Below, piece by piece: positions 5,402 to 17,043 of a stretch of DNA of 33,477 nt. The translations under genes and the position numbers were made by a program. Position 1 is the stretch's first letter, and every line of letters begins with the position of its first letter. Source of the stretch: a virus (lineage: Duplodnaviria > Heunggongvirae > Uroviricota > Caudoviricetes); the IMG/VR virus record IMGVR_UViG_3300029193_000102, positions 1 to 33,477 of that record. One strand, written 5' to 3'. The notes under the pieces were generated by a model. It ran no database searches. It saw only the letters and a list, made by a program, of their open reading frames with translations, and had not been told where the DNA came from.

Positions 5402-5459
5402 AAAAAGGGCGGCAGAGCAGTCACGGAGTAAAACTGATACCGCCAAACGTCACCAGAAA
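5402..5459 (-). ncRNA. dicF: DicF small RNA (53 nt at 5407..5459) with 3' stem-loop and U-tract
   Basis: Minus-strand sequence TTTCTGGTGACGTTTGGCGGTATCAGTTTTACTCCGTGACTGCTCTGCCGCCC followed by TTTTT matches recalled DicF; lies upstream of dicB as in the Qin dicB operon. Confidence 0.7.
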
Positions 5460-5799: not shown

Positions 5800-6018
5800 T
5801 TAACGCGGGTATGTAATCATTCTGGCAATGCTTAATGCCGCTGCTTTTTCCAGATTGGTGATATCCTGCTCCAGAGCGGACAGATTTTCAGCCTGCTTAG
5901 CCCTGGCTTCATTGGCCCATTTCAGATCCTGCGCTGCATTAATTTTCTGGCGCATCCACTCATAAAGTTCATCATCGGTATAGTCTGGCGCGATGATGAC
6001 GGGTTCTCGTTTCTGCAT
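5800..6018 (-). CDS. Hypothetical 72-aa protein (position and size equivalent to Qin YdfC)
   Basis: ATG 6016..6018 with AAGGAG 6 nt upstream; predicted coiled-coil-rich small protein; same strand as the dicB module. Confidence 0.5.
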   Translation of the reverse strand: MQKREPVIIAPDYTDDELYEWMRQKINAAQDLKWANEARAKQAENLSALEQDITNLEKAAALSIARMITYPR

Positions 6019-6089
6019 GTCGGCTCCTTGTGGTTAGCGTTGCCTGCTTTTAACCACGTCAGGCGAGGTGGTATCCTCTGAGGGGTCTG

Positions 6090-6446
6090 TTACTCGAGAG
6101 GAAATTGGTTATGAGTACAATCAAGTTTTCTTGCCCAGAATGTGGTGGCGAAGTCTTTGACACATCCTTTAAGCCGCAGGGCTCTGACAGTTTCGCGGGA
6201 GCCATCTGCAAAAATTGTGGTCACCTTGTAACTGAAGATGAGTCCTCGCAGTTCGATGATGAAATCGTTGACAATATCTTCGGTGCACTCACCAGAGACT
6301 TTCTGAAGTAAAGGCGCATACCGCTTAGTTACCGCTCTGATAATTCTTACCTGTCCGGCAATGGCGCTGATGTCAATATAAAGCGCCATTGCTGCTTCTT
6401 TGCCGATCCCGGGATGCCTTCCATTCTGATGTTTGACTTCGCCCAC
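6090..6446 (-). CDS. Hypothetical 118-aa protein (GTG start); conflicts with the antisense zinc-ribbon ORF at 6111..6311
   Basis: AGAGGA 7 nt upstream of GTG 6444..6446; same strand as the surrounding early-left operon; no recognisable motif. Confidence 0.3.
   Translation of the reverse strand: MGEVKHQNGRHPGIGKEAAMALYIDISAIAGQVRIIRAVTKRYAPLLQKVSGECTEDIVNDFIIELRGLIFSYKVTTIFADGSRETVRALRLKGCVKDFATTFWARKLDCTHNQFPLE
6111..6311 (+). CDS. Hypothetical 66-aa zinc-ribbon protein (CPECGG...CKNCGH); antisense to the 6090..6446 ORF
   Basis: ATG 6111 with GAGAGGAAA upstream; two CxxC pairs ~22 residues apart; opposite strand to neighbouring genes. Confidence 0.35.
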   Translation: MSTIKFSCPECGGEVFDTSFKPQGSDSFAGAICKNCGHLVTEDESSQFDDEIVDNIFGALTRDFLK

Positions 6447-6636
6447 TGAGAAATCCTCTGTTTCCCCTTAACGCCGGGGTAGCGGAACAAAAACCTGCTG
6501 CATAGTTATTAAAGTTGAACCCTGCCGTCATGTTCTTACGCCTCGGGCTGGCTACTTAACCCCTGACCACTGCCTGGTAACTCGAAGTATTGCCCTGCAT
6601 TCTGTGGGGCGGGGTGGGTTGGTATGAAAAGAAGGA

Positions 6637-6673
6637 TACCCATAGGTATTTAAAAAGTAAATACCTATGGGTA
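6637..6673. promoter_or_regulatory. 16-bp perfect inverted repeat TACCCATAGGTATTTA / TAAATACCTATGGGTA (5-bp spacer); candidate operator upstream of the dicB-type operon
   Basis: Arms at 6637..6652 and 6658..6673; lies in the 270-bp non-coding gap between the repressor gene stop and the first early-left ORF. Confidence 0.35.
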
Positions 6674-6715
6674 AATTTTTGCGGTGTCTTAACTGGTGAC
6701 TAGTTGTTTGGTGAG

Positions 6716-7135
6716 CTATGATGCGTTTTGTGCTTTCTTTTTACGGATTTCTTCGTAGATCATATTGTAATACTGTTTTTTCTCTTCAAGAGTTTTTAAT
6801 AATTTATCCGCTTCACTTTCTGGCAGTTCGTCTAAGAGATCTAAAAAAATACGTTGTCGTGGCGTTAGAACCCTTGTTTCATAACTGGAGGCTGTGTTCG
6901 TTGATGATGAAACGATACCATCCATCCATCCCCGGGGTAACCCAAAGGACTCTTCGATAATCTCCACCATATCATCAGCGATCCGTTTTTTTCCCTTTTT
7001 CCCCTCTGGGTACAACATTCTTGATACATAAGAAGGCTCGCGCCCGATCTTTCTGGCCACGTTAACCGCTTTACCATCGCATTTCTCATCACGAATTTTG
7101 ATGAGTTGCTGTCGTCTAAATTCATATTTGTCCAT
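6716..7135 (-). CDS. Prophage repressor, HTH (DicA/RacR-like immunity repressor), possibly translated leaderless
   Basis: 139 aa; HTH-like segment GKAVNVARKIGREPSYVSRML; C-terminal FLDLLDELPESEAD resembles recalled DicA; divergent from a Cro-like gene; no SD before the ATG but a TATTAT -10 (7142..7147) sits just upstream. Confidence 0.7.
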   Translation of the reverse strand: MDKYEFRRQQLIKIRDEKCDGKAVNVARKIGREPSYVSRMLYPEGKKGKKRIADDMVEIIEESFGLPRGWMDGIVSSSTNTASSYETRVLTPRQRIFLDLLDELPESEADKLLKTLEEKKQYYNMIYEEIRKKKAQNAS

Positions 7136-7141
7136 AGGTAA

Positions 7142-7211
7142 ATAATAGATGCGATTACCGCAAGGTAAACAACCTGTGGGTATTGACTTTTGTTTACCTG
7201 TGGGTATTCTT
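7142..7211. promoter_or_regulatory. Divergent promoter/operator region: direct repeats ACCTGTGGGTATT (7172..7184, 7196..7208) overlapping a rightward promoter (-35 TTGACT 7183..7188, -10 ~7205..7211) and a leftward promoter (-35 GTTTAC 7165..7170 rc, -10 TATTAT 7142..7147 rc)
   Basis: Repeats and hexamers read directly; spacings 16-17 bp; placement between the divergent repressor and Cro-like genes. Confidence 0.4.
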
Positions 7212-7235: not shown

Positions 7236-7517
7236 ATGGAAGAATTAAGAATATTTCTCAATTCTCTTTCGTCAGATGAACAGCGTATGTTTGCATGCGA
7301 GTGTGGTACCAGCATCGGTTATCTAAGAAAGGCATTGAGTAAAGGTCAAGTGTTAGGGGCATCGTTATGTGTCCTTATTGAGCGAGCCAGTAATGGTGAA
7401 GTTACACGTCAGCAACTAAGGCCTTTTGATTGGATGAATATTTGGCCCGAGCTGGAAGATACCAAAACGTTAACACAACCACTTTCTAGGAGCTTGATTC
7501 ATGAAAATCAAGCATGA
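7236..7517 (+). CDS. Cro-like HTH regulator (YdaS/DicC-like)
   Basis: 93 aa; AAGGAG SD 7 nt upstream; HTH segment CGTSIGYLRKALS; QLRPFDWMNIW resembles recalled Rac YdaS; divergent from the repressor. Confidence 0.7.
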   Translation: MEELRIFLNSLSSDEQRMFACECGTSIGYLRKALSKGQVLGASLCVLIERASNGEVTRQQLRPFDWMNIWPELEDTKTLTQPLSRSLIHENQA

Positions 7518-7926
7518 ACACATCCGCATGGCGATGAATGCATGGGCGCGTCCTGATGGCGAAAAAGTTCCAGCAGCTGGAATAACCCAGGCTTATTTTG
7601 AGTTGGGTATGACGTTCCCAGAACTGTATGACGACAGCCATCCGGAAGCCCTGGCTCGCAATACCCAGAAAATTTTCCGCTGGGTAGAGAAAGACACCCC
7701 TGATGCTGTTGAAAAAATGCAGGCTCTGTTACCGGCGATCGAAAAGGCGATGCCGCCTTTGCTGGTGGCCCGTATGCGCAGCCACAGTTCTGAATATTAC
7801 CGTGAGATCGTCGAACGGAGGGATCGGCTGGTGAAGGATGTCGATGATTTTGTTGCGTCAGCGGTTGTTTTGTATGACCAGATGAATCGCGGCGGCCCGG
7901 CAGGGAATGCTGTGGTGATGCACTAA
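7501..7926 (+). CDS. YdaT-like regulator (CII-position protein)
   Basis: 141 aa; N-terminus MKIKHEHI matches recalled Rac YdaT; AGGAG SD; start overlaps the Cro-like gene end. Confidence 0.65.
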   Translation: MKIKHEHIRMAMNAWARPDGEKVPAAGITQAYFELGMTFPELYDDSHPEALARNTQKIFRWVEKDTPDAVEKMQALLPAIEKAMPPLLVARMRSHSSEYYREIVERRDRLVKDVDDFVASAVVLYDQMNRGGPAGNAVVMH

Positions 7927-7948
7927 AAGCACGGTGTTCGGGGGGTTT

Positions 7949-8911
7949 ATGAGCAGCAAGCTTCATGGTCTTGTCTGGGAAGGGTGCGCCTTCACCGGCA
8001 TGATCTTATCCAGGGTGGCGGTTATGGCCCGTCTTGCAGACTACAGCAATGACGAGGGCGTGTCATGGCCTGCCATTGAAACTATCCGGCGTCAGATCGG
8101 TGCAAGAAGTGAATCCACAGTGAAATCGGCTATTGCAGAACTGGCGAAAGAGGGCTGGCTGACGAAGGAAGAGCGTAAGGTCGGTGGGCGTAATGTAAGC
8201 AATATCTATCGGCTTAATGTGGAAAAACTCGAAGCAGCTGCGGCGGCGGCGCGTGAGTCATATAAACCGAAAAGAAAAATTAGCCCGGCAAAAAATGACC
8301 CGTTAACAGTTGACCCGTCAAATATTGACCCCTCAACGGTTGACCCGTCAAATTTTGATGGATCAACTGTTGATAAAAAACTGCCGATTAGGGGGGCGAT
8401 GATTGACCCCGATCCGTCAGTATTAAAACCTGATCCGTCAGATAAAAGATCTTCTTGTCCGGACGCTTCGCAACCGGACCCGCAGACGGCTGAACAGGAT
8501 TTTTTAACCCGACACCCTGACGCGGTTGTGTTCAGTGCGAAAAAACGCCAGTGGGGAAGTCAGGAAGATTTGGTGTGCGCACAGTGGATCTGGGGACGAA
8601 TCGTGAGTCTTTACGAGCAGGCGGCCAGCTATGATGGCGAGATCACTAGACCGAAAGAACCCAACTGGACAGCATGGGCCAATGACGTTCGCACAATGCG
8701 GATGCTGGATGGCAGAACTCACAGACAAATTTGTGAAATGTTTGGGCGTCTCCAGCGGGATTCGTTCTGGGTAAAAAACATCATGAGTCCGGCAAAACTC
8801 CGGGAAAAATGGGATGAACTGGTTATCCGCCTGGGGCGTTCGCCTGCGCAGCGTTGCGTGAATCACATTTCTGAACCGGACACTGAAATTCCGCCGGGCT
8901 TCAGGGGGTGA
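7949..8911 (+). CDS. Replication initiator (lambda O-like role) with N-terminal winged-helix domain and internal pentapeptide repeat
   Basis: ATG 7949 after G-rich SD (ORF track starts at GTG 7934); N-terminal HTH-type domain; immediately followed by a DnaC-like loader; contains iteron array. Confidence 0.7.
   Translation: MSSKLHGLVWEGCAFTGMILSRVAVMARLADYSNDEGVSWPAIETIRRQIGARSESTVKSAIAELAKEGWLTKEERKVGGRNVSNIYRLNVEKLEAAAAAARESYKPKRKISPAKNDPLTVDPSNIDPSTVDPSNFDGSTVDKKLPIRGAMIDPDPSVLKPDPSDKRSSCPDASQPDPQTAEQDFLTRHPDAVVFSAKKRQWGSQEDLVCAQWIWGRIVSLYEQAASYDGEITRPKEPNWTAWANDVRTMRMLDGRTHRQICEMFGRLQRDSFWVKNIMSPAKLREKWDELVIRLGRSPAQRCVNHISEPDTEIPPGFRG
8310..8441. repeat. Iteron-like direct repeats (TTGACCCGTCAAAT family) with exact 15-bp periodicity inside the initiator gene; candidate replication origin
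   Basis: Copies start at 8310, 8325, 8340, 8355, 8370, with degenerate copies at 8403 and 8431; they encode the repeated VDPSN(I/F)D peptide. Confidence 0.5.
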
Positions 8912-13206: not shown

Positions 13207-13465
13207 ATACAGCGAACGCCATTGGTTTAGTTGGATATTTACTGTGCCGGACAAAAACGGTTTGCGGGGAAATCTTAGTTAAGTAGAATAACTGCGGGTG
13301 CTTGAGGCTATCTGTCTCAGGCATGAACACCAAAAGGCAGATAGAGAAAAGCCCCAGTTAACATTACGCGTCCGGCAAGACGCTTAACATTAATCTGAGG
13401 CTCAATCTATGAACGGCAAATCTAGGTTAGCCTCTTACGTGCCGAAAGGCAAGGAGAAGCAGGCT

Positions 13466-13621
13466 ATGAAGCAGCAAAAGGCGATGTTAGTCGCCCTGAT
13501 CGTCATCTGTATTACCGTCATTGTGACGGCACTGGTAACGAGGAAAGACCTCTGCGAGGTACGAATCCGAACCGGCCAGACGGAGGTCACTGTCTTCACA
13601 GCTTACGAACCTGAGGAGTAA
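13466..13621 (+). CDS. hok: Hok/Gef-family type I toxin (HokD/RelF-like)
   Basis: 51 aa MKQQKAMLVALIVICITVIVTALVTRKDLCEVRIRTGQTEVTVFTAYEPEE, near-identical to recalled HokD; AAGGAGAAG SD 7 nt upstream. Confidence 0.8.
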   Translation: MKQQKAMLVALIVICITVIVTALVTRKDLCEVRIRTGQTEVTVFTAYEPEE

Positions 13622-16486: not shown

Positions 16487-16804
16487 GTGGTAAATTGGCG
16501 GCTGGTGGGTGTGGTGGTTGTTGCTTTCCCGTTGCTGAAAAAGAAAACGCCAGACTGTTAGCCGGGTATCAGTTATCTGGAGAAATTTTTAAATACCTCA
16601 CAATTCAGGCGGTTGACTGTTGTCTGGTTTGCGGGGAGTTTGTTAAAAGAAACTGGCATGGTGAATCCCCCTGTGCGGAGGGGCAATCAGCAACTGGTGT
16701 TTTGTCACCGACCCTTATCCTTTCTGTGCGGGTTCAGGTGCTGATACTGAACTCACCGGGAGGCACCCGGCATCATGTGCATGATGATACAGATACGCGG
16801 CTTT

Positions 16805-16830
16805 AGCCCCTCTCCGGAGGGGCTTTCTTG
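16805..16830 (+). terminator. Rho-independent terminator (plus strand)
   Basis: AGCCCCTC-TCCG-GAGGGGCT followed by TTCTTG. Confidence 0.45.
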
Positions 16831-16835
16831 TGGGC

Positions 16836-16861
16836 AAAAAAAAGCCCGAGTGGGTTCGGGC
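16836..16861 (-). terminator. Rho-independent terminator (minus strand), convergent with the previous one
   Basis: A8 run then GCCCGA-GTGGGT-TCGGGC on the plus strand, i.e. hairpin plus U-tract on the minus strand. Confidence 0.4.
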
Positions 16862-17043
16862 AACAGCATGAGATATACATTTTTATAATCGAATGGATTT
16901 TAACCAGAATTCATAAGGCTGCGCAACTGCGCGGTCTTTTTCGAATTGCGGGCTGTCGTCTCTCTTCTGCCATTGTCCTGTAACTTCCGGACTTCAGCCT
17001 GCTCCTTATCTGACTCACAATATTATCCCGGCCGGGAGGATTC

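Follow-up and report, generated by a model that had tools for sequence, protein, structure and literature searches.

Can one stretch of phage DNA encode a conserved protein on each of its strands, or is one of two overlapping open reading frames (ORFs) the shadow of the other? The question is raised by positions 6,090 to 6,446 of a 33,477-nucleotide (nt) Caudoviricetes sequence (IMG/VR record IMGVR_UViG_3300029193_000102; the whole stretch analysed is called the window, and all positions refer to it), where a 66-amino-acid (aa) ORF on the plus strand, with the cysteine pattern of a zinc ribbon, lies entirely within a longer ORF on the minus strand. The window is a lambdoid prophage of Escherichia coli, of the Qin/DicB type. 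Based on sequence comparison across related prophages, both ORFs are probably real protein-coding genes sharing DNA on opposite strands, and neither frame seems to be a mere by-product, because both appear to encode conserved proteins over the same 200 bases.

Geometry and annotation of the ORF pair

An earlier note on this DNA, made from the letters of the window and a list of ORFs, had described a 118-aa minus ORF that contains the plus ORF, each with its own ribosome-binding site, and this description holds at the level of the sequence. The minus ORF (6090..6446) opens with a GTG at 6446–6444 that is preceded by AGAGGA at 6459–6454, while the plus ORF runs from the ATG at 6111 to a stop codon at 6309–6311 (the program-made ORF list gives it 68 aa, from a TTG at 6105), with two CxxC pairs (CPEC at residues 8–11 and CKNC at residues 33–36) and the Shine-Dalgarno (SD) sequence GAGAGGAAA at 6096–6104. 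The frames are codon-aligned and antiparallel, as had been stated, in that the offset between 6111 and 6090 is 21 nt and the codons are in exact register: the first position of a plus codon is the third of a minus codon, and the second is common to both. The plus ORF remains entirely nested when the start of the minus gene is corrected as described below. The features of the pair are as follows, with omega+ and omega- denoting the ratio of nonsynonymous to synonymous rates in the plus and the minus frame.

6111 to 6311, plus strand: plus gene, 66-aa zinc-ribbon protein with an acidic C-terminal half (ORF, NCBIfam match, annotation by the Prokaryotic Genome Annotation Pipeline (PGAP), conservation and omega+)
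6096 to 6104, plus strand: SD-like GAGAGGAAA, 6 nt before the plus ATG
6090 to 6389, minus strand: minus gene as corrected, 99 aa, ATG 6389–6387, stop 6092–6090 (phrog_21318, PGAP and omega-)
6312 to 6389, minus strand: non-overlapping part of the minus gene, residues 1–26 of the 99-aa form
6390 to 6446, minus strand: N-terminal extension of 19 codons up to the GTG, probably outside the protein

In a codon-aligned antisense frame, the opposite ORF is open when the gene avoids TCA, TTA and CTA. Random synonymous recoding given either protein left the other frame open in ~7–35% of trials, and the nested pair by itself is therefore unremarkable. That relatives have kept both frames is, by contrast, more than chance would give. 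Current annotation is split between the strands: deposited phage GenBank records annotate the 118-aa minus ORF only, RefSeq annotates through PGAP the plus ORF only in most genomes ("ECs_2282 family putative zinc-binding protein"), and for the O157:H7 allele with a truncated plus ORF PGAP calls the 99-aa minus product instead (WP_001240336). Each annotation would thus hide one gene because of one-gene-per-locus rules.

A zinc-ribbon gene on the plus strand

The zinc-ribbon motif had been taken to favour the plus ORF, and this was strengthened by profile searches and by comparison among lineages. The plus protein matches the NCBIfam family NF047912 (ECs_2282 family) at 57.3 bits (cutoff 37, E = 1e-15), with plus residues 4–59 aligned on profile positions 1–56 of 60, and C8, C11, C33 and C36 are invariant in 15/15 lineages. 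The ATG, a length of ~66 codons and the four cysteines are kept in these lineages down to ~50% identity, and a purine-rich AGGA/AAGGA block is kept at the site of the plus SD in every aligned lineage. Close comparisons differ mostly at plus third positions (e.g., 3, 3 and 12 or 4, 3 and 16 changes at positions 1, 2 and 3), the reverse of the expectation for a gene on the minus strand only, which supports the plus ORF. Among 48 E. coli haplotypes, 24 variants were plus-synonymous and 17 single-base variants were plus-nonsynonymous (NS, silent in the minus frame, 8; NN, nonsynonymous in both, 9), an excess of plus-synonymous variants despite nonsynonymous sites being four times as numerous. A dual-frame maximum-likelihood (ML) codon model on 12 taxa gave omega+ = 0.195 (likelihood-ratio test (LRT) against 1 = 93, p = 5e-22), and the plus-frame LRT rose to 113 with 15 taxa. 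Taken together, the substitution patterns point to a plus-strand gene under strong purifying selection.

The plus ORF is not intact everywhere. An allele with a stop at codon 14 (E14*; G>T at window position 6150, GAA>TAA in the plus frame and Phe>Leu in the minus frame) was counted at 520 places, in 516 complete E. coli genomes, and the intact codon 14 at 862 places, in 850 complete genomes; in many strains one prophage has the truncated allele and another the intact one. This truncation, found in 38% of the E. coli copies while the minus ORF is never broken, is an argument that only the minus ORF is a gene and the plus ORF a shadow with a fortuitous cysteine pattern, a reading also in keeping with the phage GenBank records that call the minus ORF alone and with a strand context that favours the minus strand. 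Such a reading is nonetheless very improbable given that substitutions cluster at minus first positions, opposite to what it predicts, that omega+ is 0.19 with an LRT of 93–113, that the four cysteines demand NCA codons in the minus frame which are invariant in 15 lineages, and that the plus ORF has kept its ATG, SD and length and matches a curated hidden Markov model (HMM) above threshold.

Membership of the plus protein in the Lar restriction-alleviation family was rejected: TIGR03655 scored 15.7 bits, below its cutoff of 39.6 (E = 0.014), and the Lar-type phrog_6422 gave E = 0.008 without a passing stretch. A profile search of genome contigs with the plus alignment returned two spurious zinc-ribbon matches only, and a search of the literature found no paper mentioning ECs_2282. 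As the plus protein is a small zinc ribbon with an acidic tail, a protein-binding or inhibitor role may be guessed at.

The minus gene and its start

For the minus strand, the GTG start given in the earlier note is probably wrong. Amino-acid conservation of the 118-aa form collapses upstream of residues 18–20, at which point an ATG preceded by a strong GGAG-type SD is found in diverged relatives. In one relative (locus L092) the frame is closed by a stop three codons before the corrected ATG, and the O157 allele (L004 and eight identical loci) lacks 1 nt shortly after the GTG, at the equivalent of ~6436 in the window, which puts the GTG out of frame and leaves the 99-aa ORF intact. Because of this collapse of conservation, the ATG and SD of the relatives, the L092 stop and the O157 deletion, the minus product is most likely 99 aa long, starting at ATG 6389 and not at GTG 6446. 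Within the E. coli clade the extension (6390..6446) carries 17 nonsynonymous and 7 synonymous variants, and phrog_21318 matches the minus protein end to end (E = 4.3e-66, residues 1–99 on positions 1–99 of 99).

Outside the overlap, diverged lineages differ mainly at minus third positions (e.g., 3, 4 and 12 changes) and the amino acids are kept. For these 22–26 codons, dual-frame ML gave a minus-frame omega of 0.23 (LRT 32.9), while the aligned plus frame, in which there is no ORF over this stretch, had an omega of 0.67 that was not significant. The minus ORF thus carries the signature expected of a gene under purifying selection outside the overlap. It is uninterrupted in 97/97 loci; the number of one-step routes to a stop codon is 18 in plus and 22 in minus. 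The AlphaFold2 model of the minus protein (predicted local distance difference test (pLDDT) 71) consists of three helices, a beta-hairpin and a C-terminal helix, with the highest confidence in the overlapped part. No Pfam or NCBIfam family matched the minus protein, and nothing was found in PADLOC. A lambda N-type antiterminator, considered for a gene in the first position after pL, was rejected because the N-terminus (MALYIDISAIAGQVRIIRAVTK) lacks the arginine-rich RNA-binding stretch.

The opposite one-gene reading, in which only the plus ORF is a gene and the entire minus ORF a non-coding shadow, would agree with PGAP calling the plus ORF alone in most RefSeq genomes and with the lack of Pfam and NCBIfam matches for the minus protein. 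It is hardly credible in view of the minus coding signature where the plus ORF is absent (omega 0.23, LRT 33), the conserved minus start and SD, the constant co-direction of the minus ORF with the early operon in two insertion contexts, a significant avoidance of stop codons (see below) and a PHROG family of exactly 99 positions.

Selection on the minus frame inside the overlap

Within the overlap the two frames share every base, and selection on the minus frame was measured against shadow frames of 14 genes or gene pairs from the same loci, for which omega was 0.744 when pooled and 0.26–1.2 individually, with LRTs of at most 5.75. Substitutions in the overlap are much scarcer at position 2 than at positions 1 and 3, where their numbers are similar (e.g., 22, 7 and 28 changes). 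In the 14 control pairs, position 3 takes most of the changes, positions 1 and 2 have low and similar numbers, and none shows the pattern of the overlap. Changes that are nonsynonymous in plus and synonymous in minus stand at 0.26 compared with 0.14 in the controls, with the other classes (including NN) at equal rates. The NN/NS ratio alone (0.48, controls 0.50–1.26) was only suggestive, and the ML model calibrated on the controls was therefore used instead.

On the 12-taxon tree omega- in the overlap was 0.377 (95% confidence interval ~0.26–0.54; LRT against 1 = 29). Because the control shadow frames also fall below 1, omega- was tested against the empirical shadow value of 0.744, from which it differs with an LRT of 14.5 (p = 1.4e-4). 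Leaving out L099/L100 or the E. coli clade leaves the result standing, and on 15 taxa omega- was 0.357 (LRT 41 for the minus frame and 21 against 0.744). Constraint is strongest in the C-terminal third of the minus protein (omega- = 0.23, LRT against 0.744 = 17). Stop codons are avoided as well: none of 26 serine and 19 leucine codon states in the plus frame makes a minus stop (P ~3e-4 to 1e-3), and in two loci (L087 and L088) a TCA in the plus frame lies exactly at the end of the minus ORF. The minus frame appears to be under purifying selection inside the overlap too, more weakly than outside it.

The earlier note had held that one ORF is probably a shadow of the other, and this is contradicted: the dual-frame codon model rejects an absence of selection for both frames, the minus frame is more constrained than the control shadow frames, and it has a coding signature outside the overlap as well. 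The note had also proposed that either call be dropped if conservation supported one strand only; both frames are instead kept in 15 lineages.

A rival account would be that only the plus ORF matters in the overlap, with the minus gene real at its 5' end and its C-terminal 73 codons an unconstrained read-through tail, left open by the plus gene's chance avoidance of TCA, TTA and CTA or by a benefit of translation in preventing polarity on ydfC, DicF and dicB. Constraint is stronger on the plus frame (omega+ 0.19 vs omega- 0.38), omega- is not significant within E. coli, where many radical minus replacements are segregating, the second half of the overlap resembles the controls, and an open antisense frame has a 7–35% chance in any single lineage. 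Against a tail of this kind, the extreme C-terminal third is the most constrained part of the minus protein, the avoidance of stops is improbable when taken jointly across lineages, the family-wide omega- is below every reliable control, and AlphaFold2 places a beta-hairpin and two helices, at its highest confidence, in the overlapped part. On this evidence a read-through tail is unlikely, and the preferred reading is still that of two protein-coding genes.

Several observations weigh against that reading. On the plus side, the E14* nonsense allele is common in E. coli and includes O157:H7, a second nonsense change (E44*) occurs at one locus (L076), and AlphaFold2 gave a pLDDT of only 58 for the protein. 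For both proteins, sequence searches of the PDB returned nothing meaningful and fold searches were uninformative. On the minus side, the middle of the ORF (the second half of the overlap) has an omega- of 0.54, like the control value, the E. coli clade alone gives a non-significant omega- of 0.64, and the plus-synonymous polymorphisms of E. coli include radical minus changes (K/E, R>C and G>R). Further, for two of the 14 control genes the shadow omega came out nominally low (0.26 and 0.35; p = 0.02–0.04), from which it follows that the omega- test is somewhat anti-conservative.

Distribution and genomic context of the cassette

Homology searches with both translations, as the earlier note had recommended, found homologues of both down to ~60% identity in Citrobacter, Klebsiella and Enterobacter. 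Among 1.84 billion representatives, an HMM built from the minus alignment recovered only eight proteins, all of one narrow family, and no remote homologue free of the antisense ORF that would separate the two genes. The two most remote minus members (L099 and L100/L101) also have an antisense 66-aa ORF of the CxxC...CxxC type. Conversely, in three Serratia loci found via the plus protein alone (L103, L104 and L105) the aligned antisense frame is open, and the minus frame is open across the whole overlap in 15/15 lineages. Among the relatives examined, the two ORFs were never found apart. One of the Serratia loci, L105 (3001–3204), is the most aberrant member, with an intact plus ORF of 67 aa, an open antisense frame, a non-homologous minus N-terminal region, LS in place of FW and an adjoining molybdopterin oxidoreductase gene on a 4-kb contig.

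A count over 5,426 complete E. coli genomes found the cassette in at least 937, and strain BEN5202 carries an intact copy that is 100% identical. At most loci it lies directly downstream of the repressor gene, as in the window, while in L087 (4001–4285) and L088 (4001–4285) it follows cro in the early-right operon and the plus ATG has a different upstream sequence. The minus ORF is co-directional with the operon in either layout, and the claim that strand context favours the minus ORF is borne out in every context seen. In other E. coli phages the same slot is filled by ydfA/ydfB-type genes, and the cassette can therefore be regarded as a mosaic module, bounded at ~6040 and ~6460. The codon-aligned nested antisense pair, judging from these loci, travels as one cassette among the lambdoid prophages of Enterobacterales. 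Two loci that resemble CP-933P (L097, 2031–2509, and L098, 732–1210) have a PaaA2/ParE toxin-antitoxin pair between the repressor gene and the cassette, which belongs to the paaR2-paaA2-parE2 system (PMC8630535); the paper on that system in CP-933P does not discuss the ECs_2282-family gene.

Prophage setting, candidate promoters and a possible strand switch

The genes on either side of the cassette place the minus ORF in an operon that runs from right to left.

6716 to 7135, minus strand: repressor-like gene, upstream of the antisense cassette in the right-to-left order
5800 to 6018, minus strand: ydfC, downstream of the minus ORF
5407 to 5458, minus strand: DicF small RNA (sRNA; Rfam RF00039, 76.7 bits), downstream of ydfC and followed by dicB

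Beyond DicF, the minus strand carries dicB, an exonuclease gene and an integrase gene that adjoins a tRNA gene, while cro-like and YdaT-like genes run rightward from 7236. Based on this order from repressor to integrase, with the cro-like side running rightward, the minus strand is assigned to the early-left operon, and with DicF and then dicB downstream the cassette would head an operon coding for cell-division inhibitors. Signals that could serve transcription lie on both sides of the pair.

6050 to 6077, plus strand: candidate plus promoter (-35 TTAACC at 6050–6055, 16-nt spacer, TG at 6069–6070, -10 TATCCT at 6072–6077)
6647 to 6675, minus strand: candidate early-left promoter (-35 TTTACC at 6675–6670, 17-nt spacer, -10 TAAATA at 6652–6647)
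6637 to 6673, both strands: two operator-like copies of ACCCATAGGTA that form a perfect 16-bp palindrome (5-nt loop)
6074 to 6102, no strand assigned: inverted repeat TCCTCT (6074–6079)/AGAGGA (6097–6102), with the minus stop inside it and the plus SD as part of it

The candidate early-left promoter overlaps the palindrome, and its TTTACC hexamer and layout recur in a promoter scan at the promoter on the right-operator side (7169–7142). The operator-like motif of the palindrome (ACCCATAGGTA, ACC(C/T)(A/G)T(A/G)GGTA) recurs at 7126–7211, and, read on either strand, the palindrome scores as an intrinsic terminator too. It is probably the left operator (OL) and may double as a bidirectional terminator. 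On the other side of the cassette, the block CTTTT(A/C)ACCAC..CAGGC..GGTGGTATC(C/T)T upstream of the plus ATG is conserved in eight lineages that are otherwise ~60–70% identical, and holds TTAACC-16-TGGTATCCT, a candidate promoter of the extended -10 type. From this conservation and the TGn extended -10 we infer a plus promoter; it matches the consensus at 8 of 12 positions, which is below the threshold of the promoter scan and counts against the assignment, as does its conflict with placing the 6074–6102 hairpin in the plus mRNA.

That hairpin is predicted by RNAalifold, and in lineages outside E. coli its arms read TCTTGG/CCAAGA, such that both sides have changed and the pairing is kept. It belongs to a conserved non-coding block (6042–6104) that forms the left edge of the cassette and has further interleaved inverted repeats (GCCTG 6042–6046/CAGGC 6060–6064 and ACCAC 6053–6057/GTGGT 6068–6072); in L100 the left-edge repeat is GCCGGG/CCCGGC, with pairing preserved. 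Rfam has no RNA family match in 5950–6730. Hairpins with compensatory changes at the cassette edge raise the prospect that constraint on the nucleotides themselves, whether through a folded RNA, an antisense regulatory RNA or selection on synonymous sites close to the plus start, mimics selection on a second frame. In line with this, 14 of the 66 codons are invariant at all three positions, and convergent transcription would give sense/antisense RNA pairing. However, a strand-neutral constraint lowers all classes of change alike and would not spare the minus-synonymous ones (0.26 vs 0.14), the avoidance of stops is specific to the frame, and the absence of an Rfam match also speaks against it; an explanation at the level of nucleotides is quite improbable, and that of two coding frames is kept.

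If both genes are real, their expression could be linked. In the mechanism proposed here, the minus gene would be the first ORF of a repressor-controlled early-left (pL/dicB-type) transcript that starts at the pL-type promoter overlapping the palindrome at 6637–6673, and since this promoter overlaps the operator, the minus protein would be made on induction. The plus gene would have its own weak promoter at ~6050–6077, facing pL from ~600 bp away. Because the promoters would face each other, the plus gene could be expressed in a repressed lysogen, in the manner of a moron, and be silenced by convergent transcription when pL becomes active; the plus transcript would end at the OL palindrome. 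Such a strand switch, with a zinc-ribbon protein from the repressed prophage and a 99-aa protein from the induced early-left transcript made mutually exclusive through convergent transcription, is offered tentatively and is, on balance, doubtful. The two products may act on each other or on one target.

Several other features of the window were recorded. A 152-aa ORF (7508–7966, minus strand), antisense to the YdaT-like gene (7501..7926), has the appearance of a shadow ORF. A match to the sok antitoxin RNA (RF01794, 112 bits) at 13296–13471 on the plus strand implies a hok/sok-type toxin-antitoxin locus in the prophage. The sRNA STnc100 (16627–16835, plus strand, 130.6 bits) adjoins AsxR, an anti-stx2 sRNA (16839–16891, minus strand) whose 63 bits equal the gathering score exactly, a neighbourhood typical for lambdoid prophages of the enterohaemorrhagic E. 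coli (EHEC) type.

Relation to known systems and significance

Lambdoid phages carry morons and accessory genes in their immunity regions, and in coliphage 186 the lytic and lysogenic promoters pR and pL are arranged face to face. The plus gene would resemble a moron as a small gene with a candidate promoter in an early operon, plausibly expressed from the repressed prophage, but it lies inside an operon gene on the other strand and not between operon genes. As in coliphage 186, convergent promoters at the cassette would give transcriptional interference. Within protein families, the plus ORF is a member of NF047912, with two CxxC pairs and a place in a prophage, and the annotation of that family gives no function and does not mention the antisense embedding seen in every member examined here. 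The plus protein is also like the Lar-type proteins (TIGR03655 and phrog_6422), which have ~55–65 aa and a CxxC...CxxC pattern and are found in the early-left regions of lambdoid and Rac-type prophages; however, its matches to them are weak, and the likeness may be one that zinc ribbons share in general.

The closest parallels are the antisense overlapping genes of E. coli O157:H7, including ano, antisense to ECs2385 (PMC5960689), and oloz0137, oloz4542 and oloz5029 (PMC9927249), which were found by ribosome profiling (Ribo-seq) and RNA sequencing (RNA-seq) and tested by translationally arrested mutants (PMC5960689, PMC9927249). The three oloz genes are other loci and were ruled out as the one described here. 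Like the cassette pair, these cases consist of a protein-coding ORF antisense within an E. coli protein-coding gene and with its own ribosome-binding site; they have their own promoter where tested, and oloz0137 is in frame -1, as is the cassette pair. Unlike them, the cassette pair is known from comparative evidence, with apparent purifying selection on both frames across genera and partners that share one narrow phylogenetic range. It also lies in a prophage immunity region, whereas none of the three oloz genes is in a phage-derived region according to the authors (PMC9927249, section 5). Antisense protein-coding pairs are thus a known, still contested kind, to which the cassette pair would be added.

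Whether functional proteins are encoded on both strands of one stretch of DNA in bacteria and phages is still disputed, and most of the antisense cases proposed are young, poorly conserved ORFs from ribosome profiling alone. The pair described here would be a clean comparative case, conserved as a unit across prophages of Escherichia, Citrobacter, Klebsiella, Enterobacter and Serratia and with measurable purifying selection on both frames. It is also easily testable, given the E. coli setting and the single-base changes that stop either gene and are silent in the other: G6240T turns plus E44 (GAG) into a TAG stop and is Leu>Leu (CTC>CTA) in the minus frame, and C6245A is silent at S45 in the plus frame (TCC>TCA) and makes a stop in the minus frame (GGA>TGA).
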